NCBI GenBank assembly: GCA_965231125.1
Contig: OZ246414.1
Span: 81,739 to 145,738, forward strand
Direction: 5' to 3'
From: an uncultured Gammaproteobacteria bacterium
GTDB lineage: Bacteria; Patescibacteriota; Microgenomatia; Woykebacterales; RBG-16-39-9b
DNA: 64,000 nt
Positions 9,361 through 50,753 of the stretch are shown here, piece after piece. The position numbers were made by a program, and so were the translations under genes. The notes beneath the pieces were generated by a model. The model was not told the origin of the DNA. It saw nothing but the letters and a program-made list of their open reading frames with translations, and searched no databases. Every line of letters starts with the position of its first letter. The stretch's first letter is position 1.

Positions 9361-9450
9361 TGGCGGAGGGGGTGGGATTTGAACCCACGATACCCTTGCG
9401 GGCATGCACGCTTTCCAAGCGTGTGCACTAGGCCACTATGCGACCCCTCC
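9361..9450 (-). tRNA. tRNA-Ser (anticodon GGA)
   Basis: Reverse complement ggaggggtcgcatagtgg...ct-t-GGA-aa...long variable arm...gggttcaaatccc...ccctccgcca. Confidence 0.9.
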
Positions 9451-9484
9451 AAGTTCAGCCATTATACCAGAAAAATAAATTAAC

Positions 9485-9513
9485 TTGACTAGACAAGCAA
9501 GCAGTAGTATTAT
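9485..9513 (+). promoter_or_regulatory. sigma-70-type promoter TTGACT-N17-TATTAT for the GC-rich ORF
   Basis: TTGACT 9485-9490, 17-nt spacer, TATTAT 9508-9513. Confidence 0.45.
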
Positions 9514-9568
9514 TTGTTCCACAAGGACAGAGGTTTGTTTGGTCGGGCAAAAAGGAAGGAAGGTGCAC

Positions 9569-10051
9569 ATGAAACTCCGAGGAATCTTGACGATGCTATT
9601 CGCGATGTTCGCTTTCGCGCTCACCATCGTCGCGGCTCTCGCCGGTACGAGTGCTTCGTACGCGGTGCCGGCAACACAAGGCATCAAGACGACAAGCCAC
9701 CGACGCAGCTTGCTGGCAACGCTGCTGTTACCTGTAGCGTTCCTCGCAGGTCTACTGCTGACAATCACCAACATCAACGTGACGACGTCAACCGACACAC
9801 CGACGGACACACCGACCGCAAAACACCGCAGATGGGGCCTGTTCGCTCTGATCACTGGAGCAATCGGCGCTCTCATGCTGCTGTTACGACTGTCGACAAC
9901 CGGCACCGACGATCGAGTTCCGATCGAACGTCTGCAAACGCACCTTGACCAGAGCAGGTCGGGCGCGGGGACGAAGGGCGACGGCGACGTTCATCACAAA
10001 GAGGTCAACTACACGACTCCTGTTCCGGTAGCGGCTCCCGCCGGCACGTGA
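9569..10051 (+). CDS. GC-rich membrane/secreted protein (160 aa, unknown function)
   Basis: ATG 9569 preceded by ggaaggaagg. Signal-like MKLRGILTMLFAMFAFALTIVAALA, two further TM segments and a TDTPTDTPT repeat. Composition visibly GC-richer than the neighbours. Confidence 0.5.
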   Translation: MKLRGILTMLFAMFAFALTIVAALAGTSASYAVPATQGIKTTSHRRSLLATLLLPVAFLAGLLLTITNINVTTSTDTPTDTPTAKHRRWGLFALITGAIGALMLLLRLSTTGTDDRVPIERLQTHLDQSRSGAGTKGDGDVHHKEVNYTTPVPVAAPAGT

Positions 10052-10215
10052 ACATCGACGATCGGTACGTAAGCGCTCCTTTCCTTCCTTTCCGGTCGGA
10101 ACTGAGGCGCTCTAGCTAACTACTTAACCCGCTGGTTATTAAGTAGTTCAGTAACCAAGAACCAGCAAGTTTTCATCAGGACGTCCTGGCCCGACCACCA
10201 ACCTCGTCCTGTCTC

Positions 10216-10256
10216 AGCCCACCTTGTGTTTTCACCAGGTGGGCTTTACTTTTTTA
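10216..10256 (+). terminator. terminator hairpin closing the GC-rich insert (overlaps the Nudix stop)
   Basis: agcccacct / aggtgggct 9-bp stem followed by ttactttttt. Confidence 0.55.
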
Positions 10257-10716
10257 ATAACTCTCTTGCTTTTCGGAAAATTTCTTTATCACTTTTGAAG
10301 GAGAGGGTTCCTTCAACCTCATCGCTTGGTATCCACTGCGCGTCTTCCATTTCCCAATCGTGATCCGCTGGATCACCGGACAAATATTCCATCAGAAAAT
10401 ACGTAACTTTTTTCTTAACTAGCTGGCCTTCGAGTTTGTAGAAATATTCTATTGGTGAGAATTCTTGGACTATCTTTGCTTCCACTCCGCCTTCTTCTTT
10501 TACTTCGCGGACGGCAGTTGTTTGTCTGTCTTCGCCCGGATCAATAAGACCTTTGGGAAAAACCCAACCGTGGTGTTGGGAATGCTTTGTAAGGAGAATA
10601 TGAATTTGACTGTCCTCTTTTTTTAGTCCGGCTGGACGCAAGCTCCGCTTTAGTCGAGGACGTAAGCTCCGCTTATAGACAATGCCGCCAGCGCTTTTTT
10701 CAAATTTAAGAGCCAT
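10246..10716 (-). CDS. Nudix hydrolase
   Basis: Nudix box GLIDPGEDRQTTAVREVKEEGGVEA. Carries an N-terminal repeat-encoded insert KRSLRPRLKRSLRPAGLKK. Confidence 0.85.
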   Translation of the reverse strand: MALKFEKSAGGIVYKRSLRPRLKRSLRPAGLKKEDSQIHILLTKHSQHHGWVFPKGLIDPGEDRQTTAVREVKEEGGVEAKIVQEFSPIEYFYKLEGQLVKKKVTYFLMEYLSGDPADHDWEMEDAQWIPSDEVEGTLSFKSDKEIFRKARELLKK

Positions 10717-10783
10717 GTTTTTGCCTTTCAGCTTACTCTCTGGTAAAATTATACGCGTTTTTGAGGTAAAAAAGTAAATTCTT

Positions 10784-10859
10784 GCCCCCGTAGCTCAGTG
10801 GATAGAGCGCAACGTTGCGGACGTTGAGGCCGGAGGTTCGAATCCTCTCGGGGGCACCA
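10784..10859 (+). tRNA. tRNA-Arg (anticodon GCG)
   Basis: gcccccg ta gctc agtggata gagc g caacg tt-GCG-ga cgttg ... ggttcgaatcc ... cgggggc a cca. Confidence 0.85.
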
Positions 10860-10860
10860 T

Positions 10861-10950
10861 GGAGGGATGCCGGAGTGGTTTAACGGCCAGGTCTCGAAAA
10901 CCTTGGGTCCCGTAAGGGGCACGGAGGTTCAAATCCTCCTCCCTCCGCCA
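10861..10950 (+). tRNA. tRNA-Ser (anticodon CGA)
   Basis: ggagggatgccggagtgg..., anticodon loop ct-CGA-aa, long variable arm, encoded CCA. Confidence 0.9.
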
Positions 10951-10958
10951 CTAATATT

Positions 10959-11029
10959 GTCCCAGTAGCTCAGTGGAAAGATCGCTACGCGCTCTGCGAC
11001 CACTTCGTAGTCTAAAAGCGCAAAAACAT
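10959..11029 (+). pseudogene. tRNA-like 5' fragment fused to the dispersed repeat (not a functional tRNA)
   Basis: gtcccagtagctcagtggaaagatcgc mimics the acceptor and D-arm of the adjacent tRNA-Arg(CCG) (gtccctgtggctcaatggatagagcac). It continues as acgcgctctgcgacc... with no T-arm. Confidence 0.45.
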
Positions 11030-11105
11030 GTCCCTGTGGCTCAATGGATAGAGCACCAGTTTCCGGAACTGGGGATTGAGAGTTCGAATCTCTCCAGGGA
11101 CACCA
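11030..11105 (+). tRNA. tRNA-Arg (anticodon CCG)
   Basis: gtccctg tg gctc aatggata gagc a ccagt tt-CCG-ga actgg ... gagagttcgaatctctc cagggac a cca. Confidence 0.9.
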
Positions 11106-11123
11106 CTACCTTCTTAATATCAT

Positions 11124-11762
11124 TTAGCTGGCCATTTTGTGGAATAATTTTGAAAGGGTTTCGCCCAGACTGTCCATCCAAGAAGTTTTTGGAACTTCGC
11201 GGTAGGGCAAATATCTAAGCAGCGCGGATTTAACTTTTTCTTTTTCTTTGGGGTCAATAATCATTATTAACCTAGCTGGAAAATTTACTAAAGTGTCTAT
11301 GTTAAGGACGGTTGACCCGTGTTTTTCGGTAAACCAAAAATCATAAAGTTCTTCCCAAAGATAGTTGTGAGTGCCCGTGATAATACCTTGATTGGTAATT
11401 TTATGATTAAGGTTATCTGGTGGAACGGAAGCCAAAACGTAAGCTAAAAAGGCTATCGCCAAAACGGGCGCAATTATGAAAAACTCCCTAACAAAAACCA
11501 GAATTAGAATAATTAAAATTGTCAGCAAGACAACGTACATAAGCCATTTTTTCCCTCGCGGAATAAAAACGTGGGCGGGGGAGGCCCACTCATACAAGGT
11601 TTTTACCTCAAACTCGCCCTCTCCCTCCTGACCTTCAAGTTCAGCTATTTTTGAGTGAAGACTATCAAGTTGTTCTTTTAACCCTGCGATTTGGTTTTCT
11701 TTGCCAGCTTGAGGGTTTGGAGAAGGGTTTCTCTTAAAAAACCGTTTTTGAGCAGACGCCAT
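11124..11762 (-). CDS. membrane protein (2 TM, unknown function)
   Basis: 212 aa. N-terminal coiled segment, a hydrophobic hairpin, then a soluble C-terminal domain. Confidence 0.5.
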   Translation of the reverse strand: MASAQKRFFKRNPSPNPQAGKENQIAGLKEQLDSLHSKIAELEGQEGEGEFEVKTLYEWASPAHVFIPRGKKWLMYVVLLTILIILILVFVREFFIIAPVLAIAFLAYVLASVPPDNLNHKITNQGIITGTHNYLWEELYDFWFTEKHGSTVLNIDTLVNFPARLIMIIDPKEKEKVKSALLRYLPYREVPKTSWMDSLGETLSKLFHKMAS

Positions 11763-11845
11763 ATATTTTTATGATACTACTAAATTTGCGCTTTTCCAAG
11801 AGCCGTTGAATTTAACCAGCCTTTTTGTTAGAATTTGCACACTCT

Positions 11846-11935
11846 GGAGGGGTCGCATAGCTGGTCCATTGCACGGGTTTGCTAAACCCGCGAGCCTTTT
11901 GGCTCACGTGGGTTCGAATCCCACCCCCTCCGCCA
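11846..11935 (+). tRNA. tRNA-Ser (anticodon GCT)
   Basis: ggaggggtcgcatagctgg..., anticodon loop tt-GCT-aa, long variable arm, CCA. Confidence 0.9.
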
Positions 11936-12025
11936 GGAGAGGTGGCCGAGTGGTTTAAGGCGACGGTCTTGAAAACCGTTTCCCGAGTAATCGGGACGGG
12001 GGTTCGAATCCCTCCCTCTCCGCCA
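11936..12025 (+). tRNA. tRNA-Ser (anticodon TGA)
   Basis: ggagaggtggccgagtgg..., anticodon loop ct-TGA-aa, long variable arm, CCA. Directly abuts the previous tRNA. Confidence 0.9.
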
Positions 12026-12035
12026 GCTTTATCCT

Positions 12036-12704
12036 TTATCTAGATCTAGCCAGAGTTAATCCCCAAACTTTTTCGGCGCCGGCCCTCTTCAAAACTGTCG
12101 CGCAGTTTTTTAAAGTGGCCCCAGAAGTCCAAACGTCATCAAAAAGTAAAAAACCTTCTCCCCGAACAGAGTCTTTATCGATGCACTCGAAAGCCTCTTT
12201 CACATTTTCTTTTCTTTTTTCGCGAGACAAATTAACCTGCGCCCTTGTGGCTTTTTCTCTTTTTAAAATTCCTGTTTTTAACTTCAGTTTTAATTTTTCG
12301 GCCAAAAAACTTGCTAGAAGTTCTGACTGATTAAAATCTCGCCATCTTTGTCTTCCTCCATGTAAAGGTATCGGCGTTAGATAAAATTTTTCAAGAAAGC
12401 TTGGCAATTTAGGGTTTACGTACTCAACCAAACTTTCGGCTAAATCTTTAACAAACTTATATTTTAATTTATACAAGGCTTGGGGGATTGGGTCCGAGTA
12501 ATAAACCAAGCAGTAGAGGCCGTTCAAAGCCAGTCTCGTTTGACATTTTGGGTGGGTTGTACCAAGAATTGAGGCTCTTCCGCAAACGGGGCACGTATGG
12601 TTTGTAACGAACTGAATATTTTTCCGACACTGCCGGCAAATATAAAAACCAAGCTTGCCGCAACCCACACATGTTTTCGGAAAAACTAAATCCAATAGCC
12701 CCAT
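12036..12704 (-). CDS. comF: ComF family protein (phosphoribosyltransferase domain)
   Basis: N-terminal Zn-finger CVGCG..C..C...CPVCG and PRTase motif LLFDDVWTSGATL. Start moved to ATG 12704 because the longer ORF overlaps the tmRNA terminator. Confidence 0.75.
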   Translation of the reverse strand: MGLLDLVFPKTCVGCGKLGFYICRQCRKNIQFVTNHTCPVCGRASILGTTHPKCQTRLALNGLYCLVYYSDPIPQALYKLKYKFVKDLAESLVEYVNPKLPSFLEKFYLTPIPLHGGRQRWRDFNQSELLASFLAEKLKLKLKTGILKREKATRAQVNLSREKRKENVKEAFECIDKDSVRGEGFLLFDDVWTSGATLKNCATVLKRAGAEKVWGLTLARSR

Positions 12705-12749
12705 AAATATAGGTACACAAAAACCCACCTTTTAAGTGGGTTTTTGTGG

Positions 12750-13112
12750 TGGTGGAGATGATGGGTATTGCACCCATGTCCGTGAAAGAATGATAACCAG
12801 ATACTACAAGCTTAGCTAACCTTAATCTCCTTTGGCTCCTACCGGTTAGCAGGATCAGTACCAAAGCAGGTTGTTGATAAGTTCTGAGTAGATTTAGGTT
12901 ACCAACCTAAAAATAATCGTCTTGGCTCCTGTTGCACTCTTAGGGCTTCACCAAGATAAAGCTTAAAAGAGCGCTCGATTACGCGAAAGCGAGTCGAGAT
13001 GAAAATGCCTTGTTGGCATTTACGAATTTGCCTGCAGATTTAACGGCTTCTAACAAGCTTATGCCGGCTTGCATCTAACTCACCAGTCTCACCGTCGAAA
13101 TTAGACATCCCC
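12750..13112 (-). ncRNA. ssrA: tmRNA (ssrA)
   Basis: 5' ggggatgtctaatttcgacgg, 3' T-arm plus catctccacca with a G3:U pair. Tag ORF GCC AAC AAG ... TAA (13017-12979) encodes ANKAFSSRLAFA. Adjacent to smpB. Confidence 0.85.
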
Positions 13113-29609: not shown

Positions 29610-32600
29610 CTAAGCGGCTACAATCACAAATCCGCTATTGGGTTCTGGCACTGCGCTCGTAACTAGGTTGTTGTGGCCCATATAGACCATCTTGATGTAC
29701 CTGATGTAACGCTGCTTCTCCTCCTCTCCTATGTTCCTAATCGCTTCCCGTAGAACGTTATTGATTTGGTCCCAGCGATATTTGTCGACGATCATTTCCG
29801 CAAGCTTCATAGAGTATCGGGAGTCAATTTTTGCCCAGCGGGCAATAGTGACAGTCAGGCGATCAACGTCCATCTCCCTCATCGCCTTGCCTCTCTGGAC
29901 TCCATCTTGCTCTTTGAACCTAGAGAGCCACCAACTATTACCCTTTAGGCTCTTGGCGCTTTCCTTAACGAACTCGAGTTCGTCTGTCTCACTCCAGTGA
30001 CCAAGCTCCCGCGCCCTGGCTTTACCGAGACTGTTGTCGAACACTCGGTTCCACCAAACCCATTCCCCATCTCGAACAAATTTGGACTCTGACTCAGCAT
30101 CGTCCCCGATTCGGAAGGGGTAACCCTCGCTGATCCAGGAACCGTAGGTGCCTCCGGAGAAAGCGTGGGCCCGACCCAAAAGGGTGAGCTCCATCTCCCT
30201 CTCTTCCTGGTAAGCGATCGCTGGTCTGCGCAGATCCCAAATCATTCGCTCCATACCGATCCGGCGACCACCAGGAAGCCCGAGATCGAATCTGCCCTTC
30301 GGAATTACGATGGTGGGTAGGCCTTCGGTGTTCCGCCGGACTACGGGGACCACCTGCTGCACCCGGTTAGTCATCGCTTCTTGCAAAGCGTACTGAACCC
30401 TAGCCCGCTTTGGCTCCTCGGGCTGGTGAGCCCACATTGCGTACATGAAGTTACGCGCTGCAGTGGCGTTGTCGTAGTTCACCCGAATGAAGCTATCATA
30501 GCCGTACGTATTTGGGTTGGACAAGCGCACGTTAAGCACCGCCAACGCATTCATCTGACCTAGAATCGCCTCGTTCTGCAGCCAAACGGTGATAGGGTCT
30601 CGGACGGCAAACTCGATGGTACGGGTCCAATCGTCCTCGTCTCGGTAGTTGCGTACCCTGCTGGTGAACTCCTTAACTAGCGTGTCAAAGTCGGGCATCG
30701 CCCCATCACCAGCCGCCGAGTTTAGCCCTCGCTCGCGCTTGAGCTGATCCAAGGCGACTGCCATTGCCTCGGCGTACAAAGTTGCCTGAGCACCGTCGTG
30801 AGGCATCTTCTGCCAGGGTTCCTTGAAGAACCAGGCCCAGTCAAGTAGCGAGCGACGAAGCTCAACCCTTTCCTGGGACACCTCCACGAAACGCTCAAAT
30901 ATCTCGTTTCCGAGAACGTACGCTTCCCTTTCGTCCCGAGTCGGTTCTTTGATCTCCGAGAAGACAGCCTGCCATTCCTCATGAACAAGCTTGTCCGGTA
31001 TCTCTTCTGGACTAGGGATCGGCGCAAAAGCCTCCCCCCGATGCAGTTTGCCCAGAAGGTGGGCCTGGAACCGAGCGCACCGATGCAGAATCATGTACCG
31101 CCGGTCGCAGGTATAATCGATGCTCTCCCACTCACCACCGAAGTTGTTCTGGACATACCGAGCTACGTCCGCATCTTCCATATTCCAACCCTCACGTTTG
31201 GTCCGCATAGAGCGGGCCATCTGCCAGAATTGAATACGGTGCAGACGCTTTCTGCGTCGCTCGATATTTTCCGCCCTGTAGCGGAAGGTGGAGTGATCCA
31301 CCACTGGTTCCCAGCTACCGTAGGAAGGCTGGTAAACTAGCTTCCCTGTCTCCTTATCAACCTTGGATTTACCAGGACGGTATACCCAAGTCACGGTGGA
31401 TGGTTGCTCCACGTACACCGCGAGCTGCACGAGCTCCTTGAGAGCCTGTGCCTGGCTGACTGGATCCGAGGTTTGCGCCCCAAAAATATCCGCCAGAAGC
31501 CAAGGCTCGTTCATCTGCTCGCTTGGATACGAACGGTCCATGTTTTGGTCCACGAAGCTATCCTGATCGCGGAGCCAACGTGCCCACCATTTCTTTAGGG
31601 CTTTGCGACCCTTTGTCTTTTCGAGCTCTATCATCTCTTCTTCGGTGGGTATGCGGAATCCGCTAACTACCTCACCAGTTTTAGGATCGCGTTTCTGCTT
31701 CCGACGGACCGTTTCTTCGAAGTATTTCCACGTCGCCCCGTAACCGAAGTACTCGGTTCCATCCTCATCCGTATAGTAGAGGATTTTCTCCGAACACACT
31801 TTGTGAGCGAGCATGGTGCGGCCTTTTATGTTCAGGTCGCCCACGTCGATTTCGTACTTCTCAGTGTGCGGATTGTAGTGCAGGCCTTCGGGAAATTCCT
31901 GAAAGACCCCTTCACGAACGTTTGCACCATTGCGGTAATACTCCGCTTCCACGCGGCTGCGGAGTGCCTCTTTTTCAGCTTCAGACAGCTCTTCGAGCTC
32001 CCCGGTTTCGGGGTTCTCCACGAAGTAATACCACTGATCTGGTTCCTTCGGGCGAAGCTTCAGCCGAAGCGCGCGGCGGTAGACGTTGTCTTTCTCCCGC
32101 CATTCATCCATTGGTGCGTTGGGTTTGTGCGGTGGAGGGACTTTATTCAACCCTTCGTTGTTCACTGGAAGGTCTCCAGCTCCAACAGCAGGGTAGAACA
32201 CTCGATAGCGAGTAAAGTCCTCTCTCTTCGCGATATCCTCCGCGTGCAACTTGCGCATAACTTCCAGCCGGGAAGAGCCAGGGTTCTTTTTGAGAGCCCG
32301 ACGCATCCGGTGGTAGCTACGCGACACACGCCGAATTTCCCGGTGGTACATCCAGTTAGGATAGCGTCCACCGGGACCAATGTCTTGACGAACTCTAGCG
32401 TGGTTCAGCTCGGGCGAAAGAACGAACATGTTCGTGTCGATACGAACCTGCCCAAGAGAAACCTCAGAGTTCTCTATTTCTTGTTGAAGTTTCTGTACTT
32501 CTTCCCACATGTGCTTTTGTTTTACGGTGTCCGAGATTCCAAACGAGAGAGTGCTGATGAGAAACGGGTTTTTTCCCTTACGCTCAATAGCGTAGCATAG

Positions 32601-32945
32601 AATCGGTTCCCGCTCTCCCATTGGGAATTCGGGCTTTCCGTCTCTGCCAACCCGCCATACCCCGTCCCTTGGTACAACGACTCGCTCCTTAGGCTTGGCT
32701 GTAACCACTTCCATGAAGAAGCGGCGGCCACCCCTCTGCCCGTTGATCTGGAAACCTTGTTCCGAATACTGCGTCTCAGCCAGAGCTTTGAGCTCCTGCT
32801 CTAGCGATGGGAGACCAGCGTATGCCCCCGATCCATATTCGGCTGGGGTTATTACCAGATCCGGTATTCTACCGAACCTAGTTCCGGGAAGAGCTTCCTC
32901 GAACTCTTCGCCATAACCGTCACCGTCCCCATTACCATTTGTCAT
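29610..32945 (-). CDS. large GC-rich orphan protein (1111 aa, no recognisable domains)
   Basis: Uninterrupted ORF. Best start is ATG 32945 (MTNGNGDGDGYGEEF) with GAGGAGGA 8 nt upstream. No signal peptide or TM. Arg/Glu/Trp-rich. Confidence 0.7.
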   Translation of the reverse strand: MTNGNGDGDGYGEEFEEALPGTRFGRIPDLVITPAEYGSGAYAGLPSLEQELKALAETQYSEQGFQINGQRGGRRFFMEVVTAKPKERVVVPRDGVWRVGRDGKPEFPMGEREPILCYAIERKGKNPFLISTLSFGISDTVKQKHMWEEVQKLQQEIENSEVSLGQVRIDTNMFVLSPELNHARVRQDIGPGGRYPNWMYHREIRRVSRSYHRMRRALKKNPGSSRLEVMRKLHAEDIAKREDFTRYRVFYPAVGAGDLPVNNEGLNKVPPPHKPNAPMDEWREKDNVYRRALRLKLRPKEPDQWYYFVENPETGELEELSEAEKEALRSRVEAEYYRNGANVREGVFQEFPEGLHYNPHTEKYEIDVGDLNIKGRTMLAHKVCSEKILYYTDEDGTEYFGYGATWKYFEETVRRKQKRDPKTGEVVSGFRIPTEEEMIELEKTKGRKALKKWWARWLRDQDSFVDQNMDRSYPSEQMNEPWLLADIFGAQTSDPVSQAQALKELVQLAVYVEQPSTVTWVYRPGKSKVDKETGKLVYQPSYGSWEPVVDHSTFRYRAENIERRRKRLHRIQFWQMARSMRTKREGWNMEDADVARYVQNNFGGEWESIDYTCDRRYMILHRCARFQAHLLGKLHRGEAFAPIPSPEEIPDKLVHEEWQAVFSEIKEPTRDEREAYVLGNEIFERFVEVSQERVELRRSLLDWAWFFKEPWQKMPHDGAQATLYAEAMAVALDQLKRERGLNSAAGDGAMPDFDTLVKEFTSRVRNYRDEDDWTRTIEFAVRDPITVWLQNEAILGQMNALAVLNVRLSNPNTYGYDSFIRVNYDNATAARNFMYAMWAHQPEEPKRARVQYALQEAMTNRVQQVVPVVRRNTEGLPTIVIPKGRFDLGLPGGRRIGMERMIWDLRRPAIAYQEEREMELTLLGRAHAFSGGTYGSWISEGYPFRIGDDAESESKFVRDGEWVWWNRVFDNSLGKARARELGHWSETDELEFVKESAKSLKGNSWWLSRFKEQDGVQRGKAMREMDVDRLTVTIARWAKIDSRYSMKLAEMIVDKYRWDQINNVLREAIRNIGEEEKQRYIRYIKMVYMGHNNLVTSAVPEPNSGFVIVAA

Positions 32946-33086
32946 TTGTGTTTCCTCCTCGCTGTTGAACCACCTCGACTTAGTCGAGGGTGCTGACCGG
33001 CAAACTTTCTTTGTGAGAACTGTTTCCCACTTTGGTGTTTGCTGGATCAGCAGCAACACCAAGGGGCGGCCGAAGGCCAGTTTTAA

Positions 33087-33113
33087 ATTATAAGACGCGG
33101 GACATATGTCCAA
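33087..33113 (-). promoter_or_regulatory. candidate promoter (TTGGAC-N15-TATAAT) overlapping palindrome ggacatatgtcc
   Basis: Minus-strand TATAAT is the reverse complement of 33087-33092. TTGGAC is the reverse complement of 33108-33113. The spacer is short (15 nt). Confidence 0.3.
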
Positions 33114-33204
33114 AACACTAGAATCTTACATCCTAAATCTGACATCCATCCGTCCCTCGGTGTTACCTATACTAAGGAGGGGTCCTGGTTTTCACCGGGA
33201 CTTC

Positions 33205-33233
33205 GACTTGTCTAACGACAAGTCTTGTTTTTT
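33205..33233 (+). terminator. plus-strand terminator-like hairpin with no obvious upstream plus-strand gene
   Basis: gacttgtc-taac-gacaagtc perfect 8-bp stem followed by ttgtttttt. A second hairpin plus T-rich tract lies at 33260-33290. Confidence 0.45.
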
Positions 33234-33336
33234 GCTTGTTACCTCAATTTTTCGGCGTACTACAGGTTTAATCCTGTAGTTCTTTTGATCTTTATTCGTT
33301 TTTTAAGGTGCACATTAGCTTTTCGAAAATAGATCG

Positions 33337-33399
33337 CTCCGTAACCAAATCCAAGTGATTTGGGTACTCTCGCGTTCTGTGCTTTAAAAAAGCTAAGGG
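33337..33399. repeat. right copy of the inverted repeat (33-mer plus extended imperfect arm)
   Basis: ctccgtaaccaaatccaagtgatttgggtactc (33337-33369) is the reverse complement of 26465-26497 with 1 mismatch. The arm continues ...gttctgtgct..agctaaggg, matching 26427-26457. Confidence 0.65.
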
Positions 33400-33817
33400 C
33401 TCTGGGTGACAAATTTCTTATCAACCAGAGCCCACCTTCGGGGTCCTATGAAGGGACACCTCAACTCGGAGGTGGCTCTGGATTATTTAGTTTAATTTTA
33501 AGTTCGCCCTTACTCATTTTTTCTAGCCTCTACTGACTGGCCGAATTTTAGCATAACTTAGCTTAAATGTCAACTATAAGTCATTTTGTAACTTCGAAAC
33601 CTGCGAGCTCTTGGTTTCTCAGGTACTCTCACGTCTCGCGCTAGGCGTCTTAACGCCTAGCTAAGAGCGCATCGGTTTTTATTCGCGCAGTACGATACAG
33701 TTTGACTCGGTTGCTTTTAGCCTCCCCATGAGCCATAATAATCCCTACAATAGTCGTAAAAAGCTATTTTTCGGCGAAGGATCAGCGAAGCGAGCCGAAG
33801 TATTGTAACCAAAAGTT

Positions 33818-34342
33818 ATGCAACAGCATCCTGTCCCACAGAACATAACAAGTTTTGAATTTAAGCTAGTTGGGTTTCTGACGATTAAGCAATTCGGCTA
33901 TCTTGCCGCTGCCGGAATTTTTTCCTTTGTCTTTTTCATTTCTCCAATACCGACCCTTTTAAAAACTATCGTTATTACTCCTTTTGCCGCAGCCGGACTT
34001 GCCTTTGCTTTTGCTAACATAAACGGTCTCTCGTTTGACAAGTGGATCGTTGCCTTTATTCACTCGGTCTATTCCCCGTCAAGAAGGGTTTGGCACAAAG
34101 TGCCGAAGGAGATAAGTTTTCTCGCGCCAAATTTTTCCTACTATCTCAAGCGGCCGCCTACCCAACAAAAAATTGCCAGTGGCGATCGGACTCGTTTAGA
34201 AAAATATCTTGCGCAGTTGCGAAACCAGCGTTTTAATTCTAATCTCGATGTTTTTGAGGAAATGCGCCTTTCAAAAATTGACTTTAGGGCGACTGTTCCT
34301 CACTTTACAACCGTAGACTCCCAAAGGGATGAAGGCGACTGA
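33818..34342 (+). CDS. PrgI-like (VirB3 analogue) membrane protein
   Basis: 174 aa. The N-terminus HPVPQNITSFEFKLVGFLTIKQFGYLAAAG followed by two TM segments is the pattern I associate with PrgI family proteins of Gram-positive-type T4SS. Confidence 0.55.
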   Translation: MQQHPVPQNITSFEFKLVGFLTIKQFGYLAAAGIFSFVFFISPIPTLLKTIVITPFAAAGLAFAFANINGLSFDKWIVAFIHSVYSPSRRVWHKVPKEISFLAPNFSYYLKRPPTQQKIASGDRTRLEKYLAQLRNQRFNSNLDVFEEMRLSKIDFRATVPHFTTVDSQRDEGD

Positions 34343-46705: not shown

Positions 46706-47425
46706 ATGGAAAAAATTGCACTGAACGCCTCGGCGCGAAAGATTTTAGGGAAAAAAGTTAAAAACCTGCGCAAAGAAGGGTCTATCCCCGCGAATCTTTT
46801 TGGAAAAGATATAAAATCGCAAGCTTTGCAAGTGGATGACAAAGATTTTCGTAAAGTGTTTAGGCAGGCCGGTGAAACCGGAATAGTGGAAATAAAAGAA
46901 GATAAAGAGACTCATCCAGTGTTAATTCATAATGTGCAGCTGGACCCAAAGACAGACCTAATTCTTCACGTTGATTTTCATAAAGTAAACTTAAAAGAAA
47001 AGATTACTACCCACGTGCCCGTTGTTTTGGAAGGCGAGTCTCCAGCCGCGAAAAGCGGTGTAGGATTAGTTTTGCAAACTCTGAACGAACTTGAAGTAGA
47101 ATCTTTGCCGGCAGATATTCCCCACGAAATAAAAGTGGACGCTTCTAAGTTGACAGAAGTAGGGCAGTCGATCCACGTTAAAGATTTAAAAATCGATAGA
47201 GAAAAAGTGGAAGTTAAGAATGATCCAGAAGCAACGGTTGTAAATGTGCAAACCGCGGAAATGAAAGAAGAAGTTGAAGAGACGCCAGTTTCGCCAGAAG
47301 AGGTCGAAGCCATTGCCGAAAAGGGTGAAAAAGAAGAGGCCGCAGAAGGCGAAGAGGGTAAAGAAGCTCCAACAGACGAGGGGGCTAAGGAAGAGCCTCA
47401 AACTAGCGAAGAAATCCCAGCATAA
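46706..47425 (+). CDS. rplY: 50S ribosomal protein L25/general stress protein Ctc with acidic C-terminal tail
   Basis: 239 aa: LNASARKILGKKVKNLRKEGSIPANLFGK, HPVLIHNVQLDP. Confidence 0.85.
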   Translation: MEKIALNASARKILGKKVKNLRKEGSIPANLFGKDIKSQALQVDDKDFRKVFRQAGETGIVEIKEDKETHPVLIHNVQLDPKTDLILHVDFHKVNLKEKITTHVPVVLEGESPAAKSGVGLVLQTLNELEVESLPADIPHEIKVDASKLTEVGQSIHVKDLKIDREKVEVKNDPEATVVNVQTAEMKEEVEETPVSPEEVEAIAEKGEKEEAAEGEEGKEAPTDEGAKEEPQTSEEIPA

Positions 47426-47492
47426 TAACCTAGAGTTGGTTAGTGAAAAAGTCCCTAGTTCGAGAAAATAGTTGTAAACTATTCTCGAACGC

Positions 47493-47543
47493 AGGATTCA
47501 CAGTAGCTGGCTCGCCAAGCGAGGTATAAGCTACGAGAATCCT
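47493..47543. repeat. hairpin with the same outer stem (aggattc...gagaatcct) as 26456-26503 but a different interior
   Basis: Outer stem 47493-47499 / 47537-47543. Inner stems gtagc/gctac and ctcgc/gcgag. Lies 5 nt upstream of the -35. Confidence 0.5.
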
Positions 47544-47547
47544 ATAG

Positions 47548-47576
47548 TTGACAAATCCTTTAAGTTGTGTTAAAAT
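47548..47576 (+). promoter_or_regulatory. TTGACA-N17-TAAAAT promoter of the 47.6-48.5 kb GC-rich unit
   Basis: TTGACA 47548-47553, TAAAAT 47571-47576. Confidence 0.5.
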
Positions 47577-47582
47577 ACACCC

Positions 47583-47825
47583 ATTAACAATTGAAAATAG
47601 ATCGCTAACGCGCTCTGCGTCGCTAGCGCTCCTAATGGTTACAAGGTAAAAACTTTTAAAGGCACTTTGTAACTGGAGTTGAAGTTATAGCTAACTGTCA
47701 TTACGGAAACGTCCTGAAGTCTAGAACAATTCGAGTCCAGTTACCAGGTGCCTTTGTGTATCTAGGCGGTACGTCTTGCTGACCCGGCAAGCTATCGTTA
47801 AACAAATTATGGGTATGGAGGAACG
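47583..47825 (+). promoter_or_regulatory. long (~245 nt) structured 5' leader containing a copy of the dispersed repeat
   Basis: Repeat copy 47594-47638. Long-range stem aaaggcac..taactgga (47658-47677) / tccagtta..gtgccttt (47735-47754). SD atGGAGGa 47816-47822. Confidence 0.4.
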
Positions 47826-48152
47826 ATGTCAGTCAGACACCCCCTGTCAGACGTCGAAAGTTTCGAAAAGAAAGGTGTTAGGTATGTTCGGGTTTGCCAC
47901 GTAGGAAAGGGATCATTCCACTTCGAAGTCTACAGACGAATCAAACGAAGTGGGAGGCTCCATATGATTATCAGACCAGAGGCATACTCTCCTATCAGTG
48001 GGGAACTTCGCCCTTCTTCATCAGCGGTGTTCGTGGCTGAAGCGCAAGAGGATCTGTTCTGGCGTATGGTGCTCCCTTTCACAGACGCTGTAAACAGGTT
48101 GCCCGACGACGTGTCAATACAATTCATAGGCTGGACAAAGTATGGTGTGTAG
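47826..48152 (+). CDS. GC-rich hypothetical protein (108 aa)
   Basis: ATG with GGAGGA SD. No family recognised. Confidence 0.45.
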   Translation: MSVRHPLSDVESFEKKGVRYVRVCHVGKGSFHFEVYRRIKRSGRLHMIIRPEAYSPISGELRPSSSAVFVAEAQEDLFWRMVLPFTDAVNRLPDDVSIQFIGWTKYGV

Positions 48153-48264
48153 TGGTAATAATCCACAATCAAGCTTTGCTTGATCCCCAAATCCTAAGCA
48201 AATCTCACATACGGTGTCGTCGCTGTCGTTAGCGGCTGACAAAATAGTCAGCTAGAAAGGACGA

Positions 48265-48480
48265 ATGGTGATGGATCAGTTCACGCGGTTAGTTCTCGGG
48301 TGTATTGGCACGGTGATAGTTGCCATTGCTACACTTTGGCTGATCGATGGCATCTTCTGGACGCAAGTCTCGCCAAGGGCACTCATAATCGCGCCGGCGG
48401 TGATCGTTCTAGCGGTTGGAGGAGTCATGGTTCTAACCGCTGTGCTAACAGGAGACAGGGCACCGAGGGTACGACTGTAG
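48265..48480 (+). CDS. GC-rich small 2-TM membrane protein (71 aa)
   Basis: Two hydrophobic helices. AAAGGA SD. Alternative start at ATG 48271. Confidence 0.4.
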   Translation: MVMDQFTRLVLGCIGTVIVAIATLWLIDGIFWTQVSPRALIIAPAVIVLAVGGVMVLTAVLTGDRAPRVRL

Positions 48481-48503
48481 AAGGAGTAAAATCGGTGCCA
48501 CAG

Positions 48504-48546
48504 AAAGACCACAAAGCGAGTAATCGCAGCGTGGTCTTTTTATTTT
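48504..48546 (+). terminator. terminator of the GC-rich unit, overlapping the valS stop codon
   Basis: aaagaccac / gtggtcttt stem followed by ttatttt. Confidence 0.6.
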
Positions 48547-50753
48547 GGCCACGCGGAAACCATGATGGAATCATCCTTTTTTAGTCCGTTAGGACGCAGA
48601 GCGCGAAGCGATCTATTTGGTAACTTCTGCCAAAGATCTTCGGTTATGTACGGCATGAAGGGGTGGAGTAGTCGCAAAGATTCTTCAAGGACTTTTTCCA
48701 AAACCGGCTGAGCTTCGTCTCGTCGGGATTTTGAACTTTCAATATATTTATCGGCAAAGCGGTGCCAGACGAAATCGTAAAGCTCTCCGACCGCCTGACC
48801 AAAACGATAATTCTCGATTGCTTTGGTTACAATTTCTCTTGTTTTCTCCAATTCCTCCAAAATCCATTTGTCATCCAGGTGAGTGGGTGTAGGGTGTAGG
48901 GTATAGGGTTTAGGGTTTTTTGATTCGGGTTCATTCGAGTTATTATTCGCGTCCATTAGAATATACCGGCCGATGTTCCAGAGTTTATTAGTGAAATTGC
49001 GCATTCCTTTTATTTTATGTTCGCCAAGGTTAGCATCATTGCCTGGACCAGTTCCGAAGACGAGGGCCATCCGGACTGCGTCCGCACCGTATTTTTCCGC
49101 AACATCCAGCGGATCAATGACATTATTTTTACTCTTGCTCATTTTTTGACCCTTTTCGTCGCGAACCAGGCCATGTAAGTAAACCGTTTCAAAAGGGACT
49201 TTACCGGTCACATAAAGACCAAGCATGATCATGCGCGCGACCCAGAAGAAAAGGATATCGTAGCCAGTTTCCATTACAGAGGTTGGGTAAAATTTCTTAA
49301 AATCGGCTTCATCTTTTTGTCCGTAACCCAAAGTGGTAAACGGCCATTGCCCCGAGGAAAACCAAGTATCGAGGGTGTCCGGATCCTGTTCAAACTTGGT
49401 TGAGTCGCAATTTGCGCACCTAGTCGGGGGTTCAACTGAGACAAACTCCCCATTTTTCATTTTGCATTCTTCATTCTTCATTTCCTGACAGTAATAAACT
49501 GGCAGGCGGTGGCTCCACCACAGTTGCCGGGATATACACCAATCGTGAATATTCTCCATCCAATTAAAATAAATTTTTTCGAAACGGGGTGGAATGATTT
49601 TGATTTTGTTACTCTTAACCGCTGCCAGGGCGTCTTTAGCCAAATTCTTGCCGCTCTTACCGGTTTTGTTGACAGCAACAAACCATTGTTTGGAAACTAG
49701 AGGCTCGACGACAGTATCAGAGCGTTCGCAGACACCGACACTAGTCTTGTGATGCTGCGTTTTTTCCAACAGGTCCAGTTTTTCCAGATCGGTAACGATT
49801 TGTTTGCGGGCGGCGTATTTATCCAAACCAGAGTACTTACCTGCCTCTTTGGTCATTTTGTCGTCAAAACCGATGACTTGAATTTGGGCTAGTGAGTGAC
49901 GCTGTCCGACTTCATAATCGTTCGGATCGTGTGCTGGTGTTATCTTCACCGCTCCACTACCGAACTTTGGGTCAACGTAGGAATCTTTAATAATAGGAAT
50001 CTCCCGGTTCATCAACGGTAGGATGGCTGCCTTTCCAACTAAAGTCTTGTAACGTTTATCGCCCGGGTTAACCGCGACCGCTGTGTCGCCCAGCATTGTT
50101 TCCGGTCGGCTCGTGGCTACAGTTACAGTTTCTTTAGAATTCTTAACTGGATAACGGATAAACCAAAGGTTCGATTCTTTTTCTTTGTGAAGCACTTCGA
50201 GATCGGAAAGTACAGTCGCGCAGCGCGGACACCAATTAACCATTCGGCTGCCGCGGTAAATTAACCCGTCGTCATAAAGGTCTTTGAAGGTTTGGTAAAC
50301 TACTTTGGAGATTTCTGGATCAAGAGTAAATTTTTCGCGAGACCAATCTAAGCTAAATCCCATTGCCCGTAGTTGGTCGTACATTTGCTTTTTATTTTCT
50401 TGGGTGAATGCGTAAGTTTGCTTGAAGAATTCTTCCCGGCCAAGGTGGTGGCGAGTCTTACCTTGCCTTTCCAAAACCTCCCGTTCGTAAACGACTTGGG
50501 TTTGGATGCCGGCGTGATCTGCTCCTGGCAGCCACAAAGTCGAATCCCCAAGCATCCGGTGGTAGCGGATTAAAATATCCTCGATGACGTACATGGCGTG
50601 GCCGATGTGGAGCCGACCGTTGGCGTTTGGCGGAGGTAAAATAATTGAATAAGGTTTGCCTTTAGGATTGGTCTCTGGCTTGAAAAACTCCCCCTTTTCC
50701 CAAAGGGAATACCATTTGCTTTCAACTTGTTTATGCTCGTAAACTTTTTCCAT
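48540..50753 (-). CDS. valS: valine--tRNA ligase (short form without C-terminal coiled coil)
   Basis: 737 aa. PPPNANGRLHIGHA (HIGH), KMSKSKNN (KMSKS). Carries the repeat-encoded insert NRSLRALRPNGLKK near the C-terminus. Confidence 0.95.
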   Translation of the reverse strand: MEKVYEHKQVESKWYSLWEKGEFFKPETNPKGKPYSIILPPPNANGRLHIGHAMYVIEDILIRYHRMLGDSTLWLPGADHAGIQTQVVYEREVLERQGKTRHHLGREEFFKQTYAFTQENKKQMYDQLRAMGFSLDWSREKFTLDPEISKVVYQTFKDLYDDGLIYRGSRMVNWCPRCATVLSDLEVLHKEKESNLWFIRYPVKNSKETVTVATSRPETMLGDTAVAVNPGDKRYKTLVGKAAILPLMNREIPIIKDSYVDPKFGSGAVKITPAHDPNDYEVGQRHSLAQIQVIGFDDKMTKEAGKYSGLDKYAARKQIVTDLEKLDLLEKTQHHKTSVGVCERSDTVVEPLVSKQWFVAVNKTGKSGKNLAKDALAAVKSNKIKIIPPRFEKIYFNWMENIHDWCISRQLWWSHRLPVYYCQEMKNEECKMKNGEFVSVEPPTRCANCDSTKFEQDPDTLDTWFSSGQWPFTTLGYGQKDEADFKKFYPTSVMETGYDILFFWVARMIMLGLYVTGKVPFETVYLHGLVRDEKGQKMSKSKNNVIDPLDVAEKYGADAVRMALVFGTGPGNDANLGEHKIKGMRNFTNKLWNIGRYILMDANNNSNEPESKNPKPYTLHPTPTHLDDKWILEELEKTREIVTKAIENYRFGQAVGELYDFVWHRFADKYIESSKSRRDEAQPVLEKVLEESLRLLHPFMPYITEDLWQKLPNRSLRALRPNGLKKDDSIMVSAWPK

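Follow-up and report, generated by a model that had tools for sequence, protein, structure and literature searches.

A short two-hairpin repeat unit inserted in frame in the valS gene of a Woykebacteria-like Patescibacteria genome

Introduction

The candidate phyla radiation (CPR), or Patescibacteria, has some of the smallest and most streamlined genomes known, in which selfish repeats would not be expected to do well. The stretch analysed here (the window) comprises 64,000 nt of contig OZ246414.1 and includes valS, the gene for valyl-tRNA synthetase (ValS), close to whose 3' end lies a short segment that recurs in non-coding DNA of the same window. An earlier reading of the sequence alone had proposed that this segment is a dispersed repeat inserted without breaking the frame, conceptually like the Rickettsia palindromic elements (RPEs). 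This raises the questions whether the segment is indeed an insertion, to what kind of element it belongs and how it may have arrived. The proposed in-frame insertion was borne out, as removal of exactly 33 nt restores the reading of the orthologues. The segment probably represents a single unit of a small, mobile but non-autonomous DNA repeat that occurs in Woykebacteria-like Patescibacteria, resembles repetitive extragenic palindromic (REP) sequences and RPEs and would be moved as a single-stranded DNA hairpin.

Results

The valS segment is a 33-nt insertion

On the minus strand, valS reads CCA AAT AGA TCG CTT CGC GCT CTG CGT CCT AAC GGA CTA AAA AAG GAT (LPNRSLRALRPNGLKKDD), its 3' end continues GAT TCC ATC ATG, and the translated stretch is LPNRSLRALRPNGLKKDDSIM. 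In a search of 5.8 billion proteins, the top ValS matches were Woykebacteria-like Patescibacteria. Among the best 120 homologues, the only carrier of the insert was the identical sequence, and at least 115 were without the segment, indicating that the insert is lineage-specific; a second identical copy (P0121) is on a 915,171-nt contig present in NCBI and Logan. The closest orthologues (73-81% identity) read WQ(K/R)LPNK(K/Q)(G/S)(T/E)SIM(V/I)S.WP, with 5 residues (NKKGE) between LP and SIMV compared to 16 in the window ValS. The sequence-only reading had given the latter number correctly, whereas it had placed the orthologue spacing at about 4 residues and the insert size at about 36 nt or 12-14 amino acids; the inserted stretch comprises exactly 33 nt, or 11 amino acids, and the frame is kept as proposed.

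The empty site was reconstructed from two syntenic orthologues without insert (L230, L231), one of which reads CCC AAC AAA AAA GGC ACC TCG ATA ATG and the other CCG AAC AAA CAA TCA GAA TCA ATC ATG. In silico deletion of AGATCGCTTCGCGCTCTGCGTCCTAACGGACTA (48614-48582), which encodes RSLRALRPNGL, leaves CCA AAT AAA AAG GAT GAT TCC ATC ATG (PNKKDDSIM), which matches PNKKGTSIM codon for codon and restores the junction LPN/KKDDSIMVS (here and below, a slash between segments marks a boundary). A target duplication is absent, and the boundary is uncertain by one A only.

An AlphaFold2 model of ValS, built from 56 homologues, had a mean predicted local distance difference test (pLDDT) score of 91.8, and the helix at residues 701-709 (ITEDLWQKL) was modelled with confidence. 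In this model, the insert lies past the last helix of the anticodon-binding domain and forms a low-confidence loop (block mean pLDDT about 55, below 50 at residues 718-723), and the fold is undisturbed. The insert is therein predicted to be a flexible 11-residue surface loop, an outcome in favour of the earlier reading, within a linker of variable length, and it may be tolerated because of this position; the LP-SIMV linker also differs in length in more distant ValS lineages. The alignment to the Thermus thermophilus enzyme (1GAX; query 2-719, chain 4-702) stops in the insert region, and the window ValS terminates 13 residues past the insert. We infer that it is devoid of the C-terminal part of the Thermus enzyme. 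ValS proteins of this lineage (P0002-P0120) are generally short (about 695-740 amino acids, ending ..WPK past the anticodon-binding domain; Thermus, 862 amino acids). A few orthologues of 813-878 amino acids align piecewise (P0004, P0005, P0010) and, judged by sequence, probably carry a large internal insertion; for P0010 (819 amino acids), the best local alignment covers 58% of the query.

The segment belongs to a family of two-hairpin units

The motif AGATCGCT-N-CGCGCTCTGCG recurs in the window at 10979 (unit D) and 47599 (unit A) and, with an enlarged loop, at 33331 (unit B), each on the plus strand. The three non-coding copies named in the earlier reading are thereby accounted for, and their nucleotide similarity to the valS segment survives proper alignment and extends to a large family with several independent in-frame copies. 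Chance expectations were derived from dinucleotide-preserving shuffles. A 23-mer with up to three mismatches matched twice (0.00 expected), and CGCGCTCTGCG with up to one mismatch gave three matches, all exact (0.56 expected). With AAATAGATCGCT, again allowing one mismatch, five matches were obtained where 0.28 were expected; the three exact ones are the copies, and the two with a mismatch, within genes, are due to chance. A MAFFT alignment left the second hairpin misaligned, and a fuzzy pattern scan returned only the four known copies in the window.

The units, mostly 30-36 nt long, share the layout AGATCGC-TNC-GCGCTCT (hairpin 1, conserved in sequence), GC, a variable hairpin 2 closed by a G-C pair, and TA. 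Hairpin 1 is a 7-bp imperfect stem with a T.C mismatch, and 111 of 124 units have TNC as its loop. Read on the opposite strand, the TNC loop becomes a GNA triloop, and the most frequent version includes GCGAAGC, a known extra-stable DNA mini-hairpin. The sequence of hairpin 2 varies between copies while its pairing is kept: among 80 distinct sequences, pair 4 was paired in 84% (CG 27, GC 23, AT 9, TA 6) versus 39% (maximum 57%) after permutation of the partners, and pairs 3 and 5 also exceeded all permutations. The small hairpin GTCC-TAAC-GGAC pointed out earlier in valS is real and represents this variable second hairpin. In the valS copy, the two-hairpin structure is the minimum-energy DNA fold on both strands, with -7.3 kcal/mol on the plus strand of the window versus -5.0 on the other, suggesting that the strand complementary to AGATCGC..., with its GNA triloops, would fold better. 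The DNA fold of unit B consists of hairpin 1 enclosing a nested hairpin (z = -3.9). At the 5' boundary, the sequence reads ATAG in 73, GTAG in 11 and TTAG in 9 of 127 units, the AG pairing within hairpin 1.

Units occur in frame in conserved genes and insert next to a short target

Two further proteins carry the unit in the same reading frame as valS: UvrB (RSLRALRPLRGL), in which the stretch holding the unit peptide, between the portions alignable to solved UvrB, is about 31 residues longer than in those structures, and a second ValS (P0052), in which it sits at a different position (EIKN-RSLRALHSKEL). In reverse orientation, in-frame units were found in a WecB-like protein of the UDP-GlcNAc 2-epimerase family (RRARSDL) and in endonuclease Q (AEREAI), where one unit in L120 corresponds to two at the same site in L164; a second endonuclease Q insertion site occurs in P0128. 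The variable LP-SIMV linker of distant ValS lineages would be compatible with the segment being ordinary ValS sequence or a chance resemblance. We consider this practically negligible given the shuffling results, the 115 and more homologues without the segment, and the occurrence of a 33-36-nt unit in the same frame in UvrB and elsewhere in another ValS.

A second empty site was reconstructed for endonuclease Q. A homologue of the L120 protein, 94% identical, is without the insert, and at the DNA level the filled allele (L120) and an empty one (L232) share 95.7% nucleotide identity. In element orientation, the filled allele reads GAACAAAAT/AGATCGCTTCGCGCTCTGCGGGGCTTGCGCTCCTA/GCGACTC and the empty allele GAACAAAAT/GCGAGT. 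The boundaries, AAAAT/AGATCGC...CTCCTA/GCGA, are unambiguous, and nothing is duplicated. In the source genome of the window, the corresponding endonuclease Q site (P0146) is empty.

The endonuclease Q unit comprises 35 nt, and one extra base a few nucleotides away brings the difference to +36 nt and restores the frame; the remaining intragenic units measure 33, 36, 33 and 30 nt. The frame-restoring indel strongly indicates that the insert is translated and argues against its removal at the RNA level. Units do occur both in tRNA-like loops (see below) and in mRNAs, like archaeal bulge-helix-bulge introns, and a very small intron would leave the ValS protein unchanged. This explanation is nevertheless very improbable, as the tRNA hosts are truncated fragments and not restorable genes, four of the five intragenic units are multiples of 3 nt and the fifth is rescued by an indel that would be pointless if the unit were spliced. 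In addition, the exon flanks, as read from the valS sequence, are unable to form a bulge-helix-bulge.

The AAT in front of AGATCGC already existed in both reconstructed empty sites, and among 49 non-redundant sites, T occupies position -1 in 46 and A occupies position -2 in 34. The units insert exactly, immediately 3' of WAT and without target duplication, and a site can hold none, one, two or more units. The leading AAAT, which the sequence-only reading had included in the motif, is accordingly target sequence and does not belong to the element, as both the empty sites and the target tabulation demonstrate.

Distribution of the units across genomes

When genomes, one per species, were scanned for the hairpin-1 pattern, 118 loci were obtained. 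The majority of them are fortuitous matches in high-GC genomes, and the complete anatomy is present in about 14 loci of low GC content. A scan of metagenomes yielded 111 loci, all but about four of them low in GC and of the same type, and about 107 with the full anatomy. Altogether, more than 120 low-GC CPR contigs contain the unit, either singly or in head-to-tail arrays, and none of the viral contigs scanned contained a match. The labels of the roughly 14 low-GC genome loci are Woykebacteria, Patescibacteria, Saccharimonadales and in some cases 'Nanoarchaeia' or 'Gammaproteobacteria'. Public labels 'Candidatus Nanoarchaeia archaeon' or 'uncultured Gammaproteobacteria' were observed on element-bearing metagenome-assembled genomes at L008, L081, L087, L088, L013, L016, L004, L030 and L085. 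These labels look like taxonomic misassignments because the 'Nanoarchaeia'-labelled ValS and endonuclease Q sequences score among close Woykebacteria-type homologues.

The units are mostly intergenic and occupy divergent, convergent and co-directional gaps. With respect to the upstream gene, 47 had the same and 49 the opposite orientation, and 49 and 51, respectively, with respect to the downstream gene. Head-to-tail arrays with a period of 30-34 nt are frequent (e.g., L211, L123, L205, L075, L185). The orthologous gap between a sortase-like gene and a membrane protein gene holds one, two or at least five units in related genomes, and as the added units carry a different hairpin 2, they are new arrivals and not slippage copies.

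Complementary flanks of at least 7 nt surround the unit at 12 of 78 sites versus 4.0 expected, and units between such flanks belong to larger composite palindromic repeats (L173, L224, L135, L163, L182, L144, L209, L159, L148, L168, L205, L217). In one type of composite, the arrangement is ATTATATCTCGCTAGAGAAACAATA-[unit]-CGCGAGATGTAATC..GATTATAT, and compensating variants (e.g., ATCCTGC/GCAGGAT) occur; a second type, CCCTAGTTCAAG..[unit]..CTTGAACGCAGG, has a third small hairpin. The repeats are nested and modular.

Several of these properties would also be expected of a structured RNA or protein-binding motif of the host, e.g., a stabiliser of mRNA ends, a terminator-like element or a processing site, which would be under selection and have entered coding regions only by accident: the stem co-variation in hairpin 2, the nested hairpin in the expanded loop of unit B, the excess of complementary flanks, the location of unit A just downstream of a promoter-like site (11 of 12 positions) and the retention of a unit at the same intergenic site where the flanking proteins are only 55-64% identical. 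As the primary role of the unit we regard this as unlikely. The orientation is unbiased towards neighbouring genes, coding copies occur in both orientations, and the number of units at one site varies. In addition, no unit was matched by Rfam 15, either with the gathering threshold applied to the whole window or with E<=1 applied to 47400-48640. A host role may also coexist with mobility, as has been discussed for REPs.

Other copies in the window and tRNA-like neighbours

The coordinates of the copies are compiled in Table 1.

Table 1. Repeat units and associated features in the window
Feature	Position	Strand	Remarks
valS (737 amino acids)	48540-50753	minus	host gene; short ValS type ending just past the anticodon-binding domain
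Inserted 33-nt unit in valS	48582-48614	minus	defined by empty-site reconstruction against L230 and L231
valS unit, hairpin 1	48598-48614	minus	
valS unit, GC linker	48596-48597	minus	
valS unit, hairpin 2	48584-48595	minus	GTCC-TAAC-GGAC
valS unit, terminal TA	48582-48583	minus	
Intergenic unit A	47599-47634	plus	hairpin 1 loop TAAC; hairpin 2 GTCGCTAGCGCTCC
Intergenic unit B	33331-33395	plus	hairpin 1 stem AGATCGC / GCGTTCT; nested hairpin in enlarged loop; hairpin 2 GCTTTAAAAAAGC, then TA
Intergenic unit D	10979-11014	plus	hairpin 2 GACCACTTCGTAGTC; fused to tRNA-like 5' fragment
Truncated tRNA-like 5' fragment	10959-10978	plus	GTCCCAGTAGCTCAGTGGAA; broken in D-loop at start of unit D

A promoter-like site close to consensus precedes unit A by about 20 nt, and the flanks CCATTA / TAATGG of the unit are able to pair around it. 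Unit A lies in a gap of 1.1 kb that separates the L25 gene from valS (47426-48539), in which the promoter-like site reads TTGACA-17-TAAAAT (47548-47576). The same gap contains a long hairpin at about 47647-47764, with a spurious miRNA (E=0.34) as the sole Rfam match, and two open reading frames (ORFs; 108 and 71 amino acids), which lie between the copies at 47599 and 48614 and have no Pfam match. Its GC content is about 0.49-0.52 compared to about 0.43, and two syntenic relatives (L230, L231) have a gap of different length and content at this place. The copies at 47599 (plus) and 48614 (minus), about 1 kb apart, form the only inverted pair in the window. A composite transposon bounded by this pair was rejected, as the interval includes the final 13 codons of valS, for which the orthologues have homologous sequence.

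Unit B occupies a 700-nt gap (33114-33817) without any ORF of at least 100 amino acids, between a 1167-amino-acid ORF without Pfam match (29610-33113, minus) and a PrgI-family (type IV secretion-like) gene (33818-34342). Its nested insert at 33340-33372 is a second recurring motif, (A)TTTGGGTACTCTCG, which also follows units in L170, L175, L187, L151 and L193 and is sometimes extended by AATGCTGCGACCAC. This points to a related family of repeats in which the first hairpin is different.

Unit D and the adjoining tRNA-like fragment lie between tRNA-Ser (10861-10950) and tRNA-Arg (11030-11105), within a region dense in RNA genes (9361-13112) with four tRNA-Ser and two tRNA-Arg genes, six in all, and a tmRNA (minus strand, 12750-13112, 92 bits). 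The resemblance to a tRNA at unit D is confined to ATAGA(G/T)CGC of the D-arm. A split or degenerate tRNA at 10959-11029 was discarded: neither ARAGORN nor Rfam identified a tRNA, and there is no T-arm and no 3' acceptor strand. In at least eight loci, units abut or interrupt truncated tRNA copies exactly at the D-, anticodon- or T-loop (window 10959-11029, L180/L008, L174, L200, L123 at the T-loop, L138, L222, and L081/L121 at the anticodon loop). The truncated copies usually adjoin an intact copy of the same tRNA; in L081, the 3' half of tRNA-Lys is duplicated after the intact gene, and in L222 the 5' half of tRNA-Ile precedes it. Of 135 sites, 18 are within 100 nt of a tRNA gene versus 3.7 at random, which by our estimate is about what the intergenic location alone predicts, and this enrichment was not used.

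The breaks at tRNA loops, together with an XerC/D-like gene within 100-300 nt in five loci, would fit a MITE (miniature inverted-repeat transposable element) moved by a DDE transposase, or a scar left by a tyrosine or serine recombinase (att-like, as for integrative elements that target tRNA genes). Such an origin appears improbable. The ends AGATCGC... and ...CTA are not inverted repeats, neither of the two reconstructed sites shows a duplication, the units are without cargo, and element and target share no core sequence. The tRNA proximity is approximately explained by intergenic location, as estimated above, and what the recombinase loci share is a composite repeat of about 90 nt and not the element boundary. 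Conservation of an orthologous site beside the XerC/D-like gene was dismissed, as the flanks are unalignable past this composite repeat.

Discussion

Proposed nature and mobility of the unit

Hairpins instead of terminal inverted repeats and exact insertion 3' of a short motif are hallmarks of peel-and-paste transposition by HUH/Y1 enzymes, as in IS200/IS605, and so are the lack of target duplication and the re-use of the target into tandem copies. Peel-and-paste is also the model proposed for REPs with their REP-associated tyrosine transposases (RAYTs). The hairpins, exact 3' insertion, missing duplication and target re-use of the units point to a REP-like element moved in trans as a single-stranded DNA hairpin. 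Each unit would move as folded single-stranded DNA, and the mobilising enzyme would be encoded elsewhere in the genome. A host function of the unit is not required, though it is possible.

Several observations weigh against this proposal. The stability of single units is ordinary compared to shuffled sequence (z = -0.5 to -1.8), as they are too short to exceed it. All family members were retrieved by an exact hairpin-1 pattern, which means that the apparent conservation is partly due to ascertainment, and the reconstructed empty sites are only two, valS and endonuclease Q. Copy density is apparently low, with 4 units in the 64 kb of the window and, for other contigs, 2-4 exact copies in every 100-850 kb, unlike classical REPs, among which head-to-tail arrays are also rare. 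A RAYT gene with REPs on either side is typical of REP systems, and phmmer searches with two Y1 sequences against 4110 ORF segments (the window and about 1 Mb of element loci) identified no transposase, a weak negative in that the queries were single sequences. A recurrent neighbouring protein did not emerge as a candidate transposase either, as clustering of 946 ORFs yielded only housekeeping families and one XerC/D-like group.

It is also conceivable, although we rather doubt it, that, in ultra-small CPR genomes, the units form an undescribed class of minimal (30-36 nt) single-stranded peel-and-paste elements whose enzyme is not a recognisable RAYT or IS200 TnpA, and that hairpin 1 has been selected by the host, e.g., as a protein-binding or transcript-end element. 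The peptides seeded in ValS, UvrB and endonuclease Q would then be a side effect.

Comparison with known repeats

In a survey of REPs with GTAG or CGTC tags, many families were described as having 6-13-bp stems and 2-3-nt loops, REPs were occasionally located in frame inside uvrB and aminoacyl-tRNA synthetase genes, and RPE-4 and RPE-6 were equated with REP-type repeats (PMC3733652). The unit resembles REPs in its size (REPs, 20-40 nt), its imperfect GC-rich hairpin with a 2-4-nt loop, and its mostly intergenic occurrence as singletons and clusters with in-frame copies in the same two kinds of gene. An xTAG context, here mostly ATAG and only rarely the GTAG counted above, is also present, but its AG pairs within hairpin 1, whereas the GTAG or CGTC of REPs is unpaired and part of the repeat. 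In contrast to REPs, the unit has a second, variable hairpin, its arrays are direct and head-to-tail and not inverted pairs (REP doublets forming hairpins, REPINs, or bacterial interspersed mosaic elements, BIMEs), its density is apparently low, and the AT of its tag is target DNA. A RAYT gene was not found near any copy in the phmmer search described above. The host group, Patescibacteria, is unrepresented in the literature searched; within that incomplete coverage, neither a description of the unit sequence nor of REP/RAYT systems in CPR/Patescibacteria was found.

RPEs are palindromic repeats whose in-frame copies in housekeeping genes give rise to surface peptides on translation; RPE-1, the classic representative, measures about 100-150 bp and is restricted to Rickettsia. 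The translated in-frame inserts in ValS (two sites), UvrB, the WecB-like epimerase and endonuclease Q are RPE-like, whereas the unit differs in its length of 30-36 nt, its Patescibacteria host and the lack of sequence similarity. In size and anatomy the unit appears nearer to REPs than to RPEs, and the likeness to RPEs drawn in the earlier reading is apt as an analogy.

With IS200/IS605 elements and palindrome-associated transposable elements (PATEs), the unit shares subterminal hairpins in place of terminal inverted repeats, duplication-free insertion 3' of a short specific sequence and a re-usable target that gives rise to tandem copies. Those elements have two related hairpins, one per end, and are at least 100 bp long (PATEs) or carry tnpA/tnpB, whereas the whole unit consists of one conserved and one variable hairpin, and no TnpA was seen. 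BOX, Correia/NEMIS and ERIC are likewise small dispersed structured repeats with a variable number of internal modules, but they measure about 100-200 bp and mostly have terminal inverted repeats and target duplications (TA for Correia). The kind of element, REP/RPE-like, is already known, and in the literature searched it had not been described from this host group.

Implications

In CPR genomes, the units form a defined family of repeats for which filled and empty sites are clear-cut, and they can be used as a marker of recent genome change in uncultured lineages. They provide a handle towards the enzyme that moves such elements in the CPR group. For annotation, they are a warning that short arginine-rich inserts in CPR proteins, such as RSLRALR or AEREAI, can derive from repeats. 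Finally, with the in-frame copies, nature provides a test of which surface loops in essential enzymes accept insertions, and the frame-restoring +1 indel shows selection on the translated insert.

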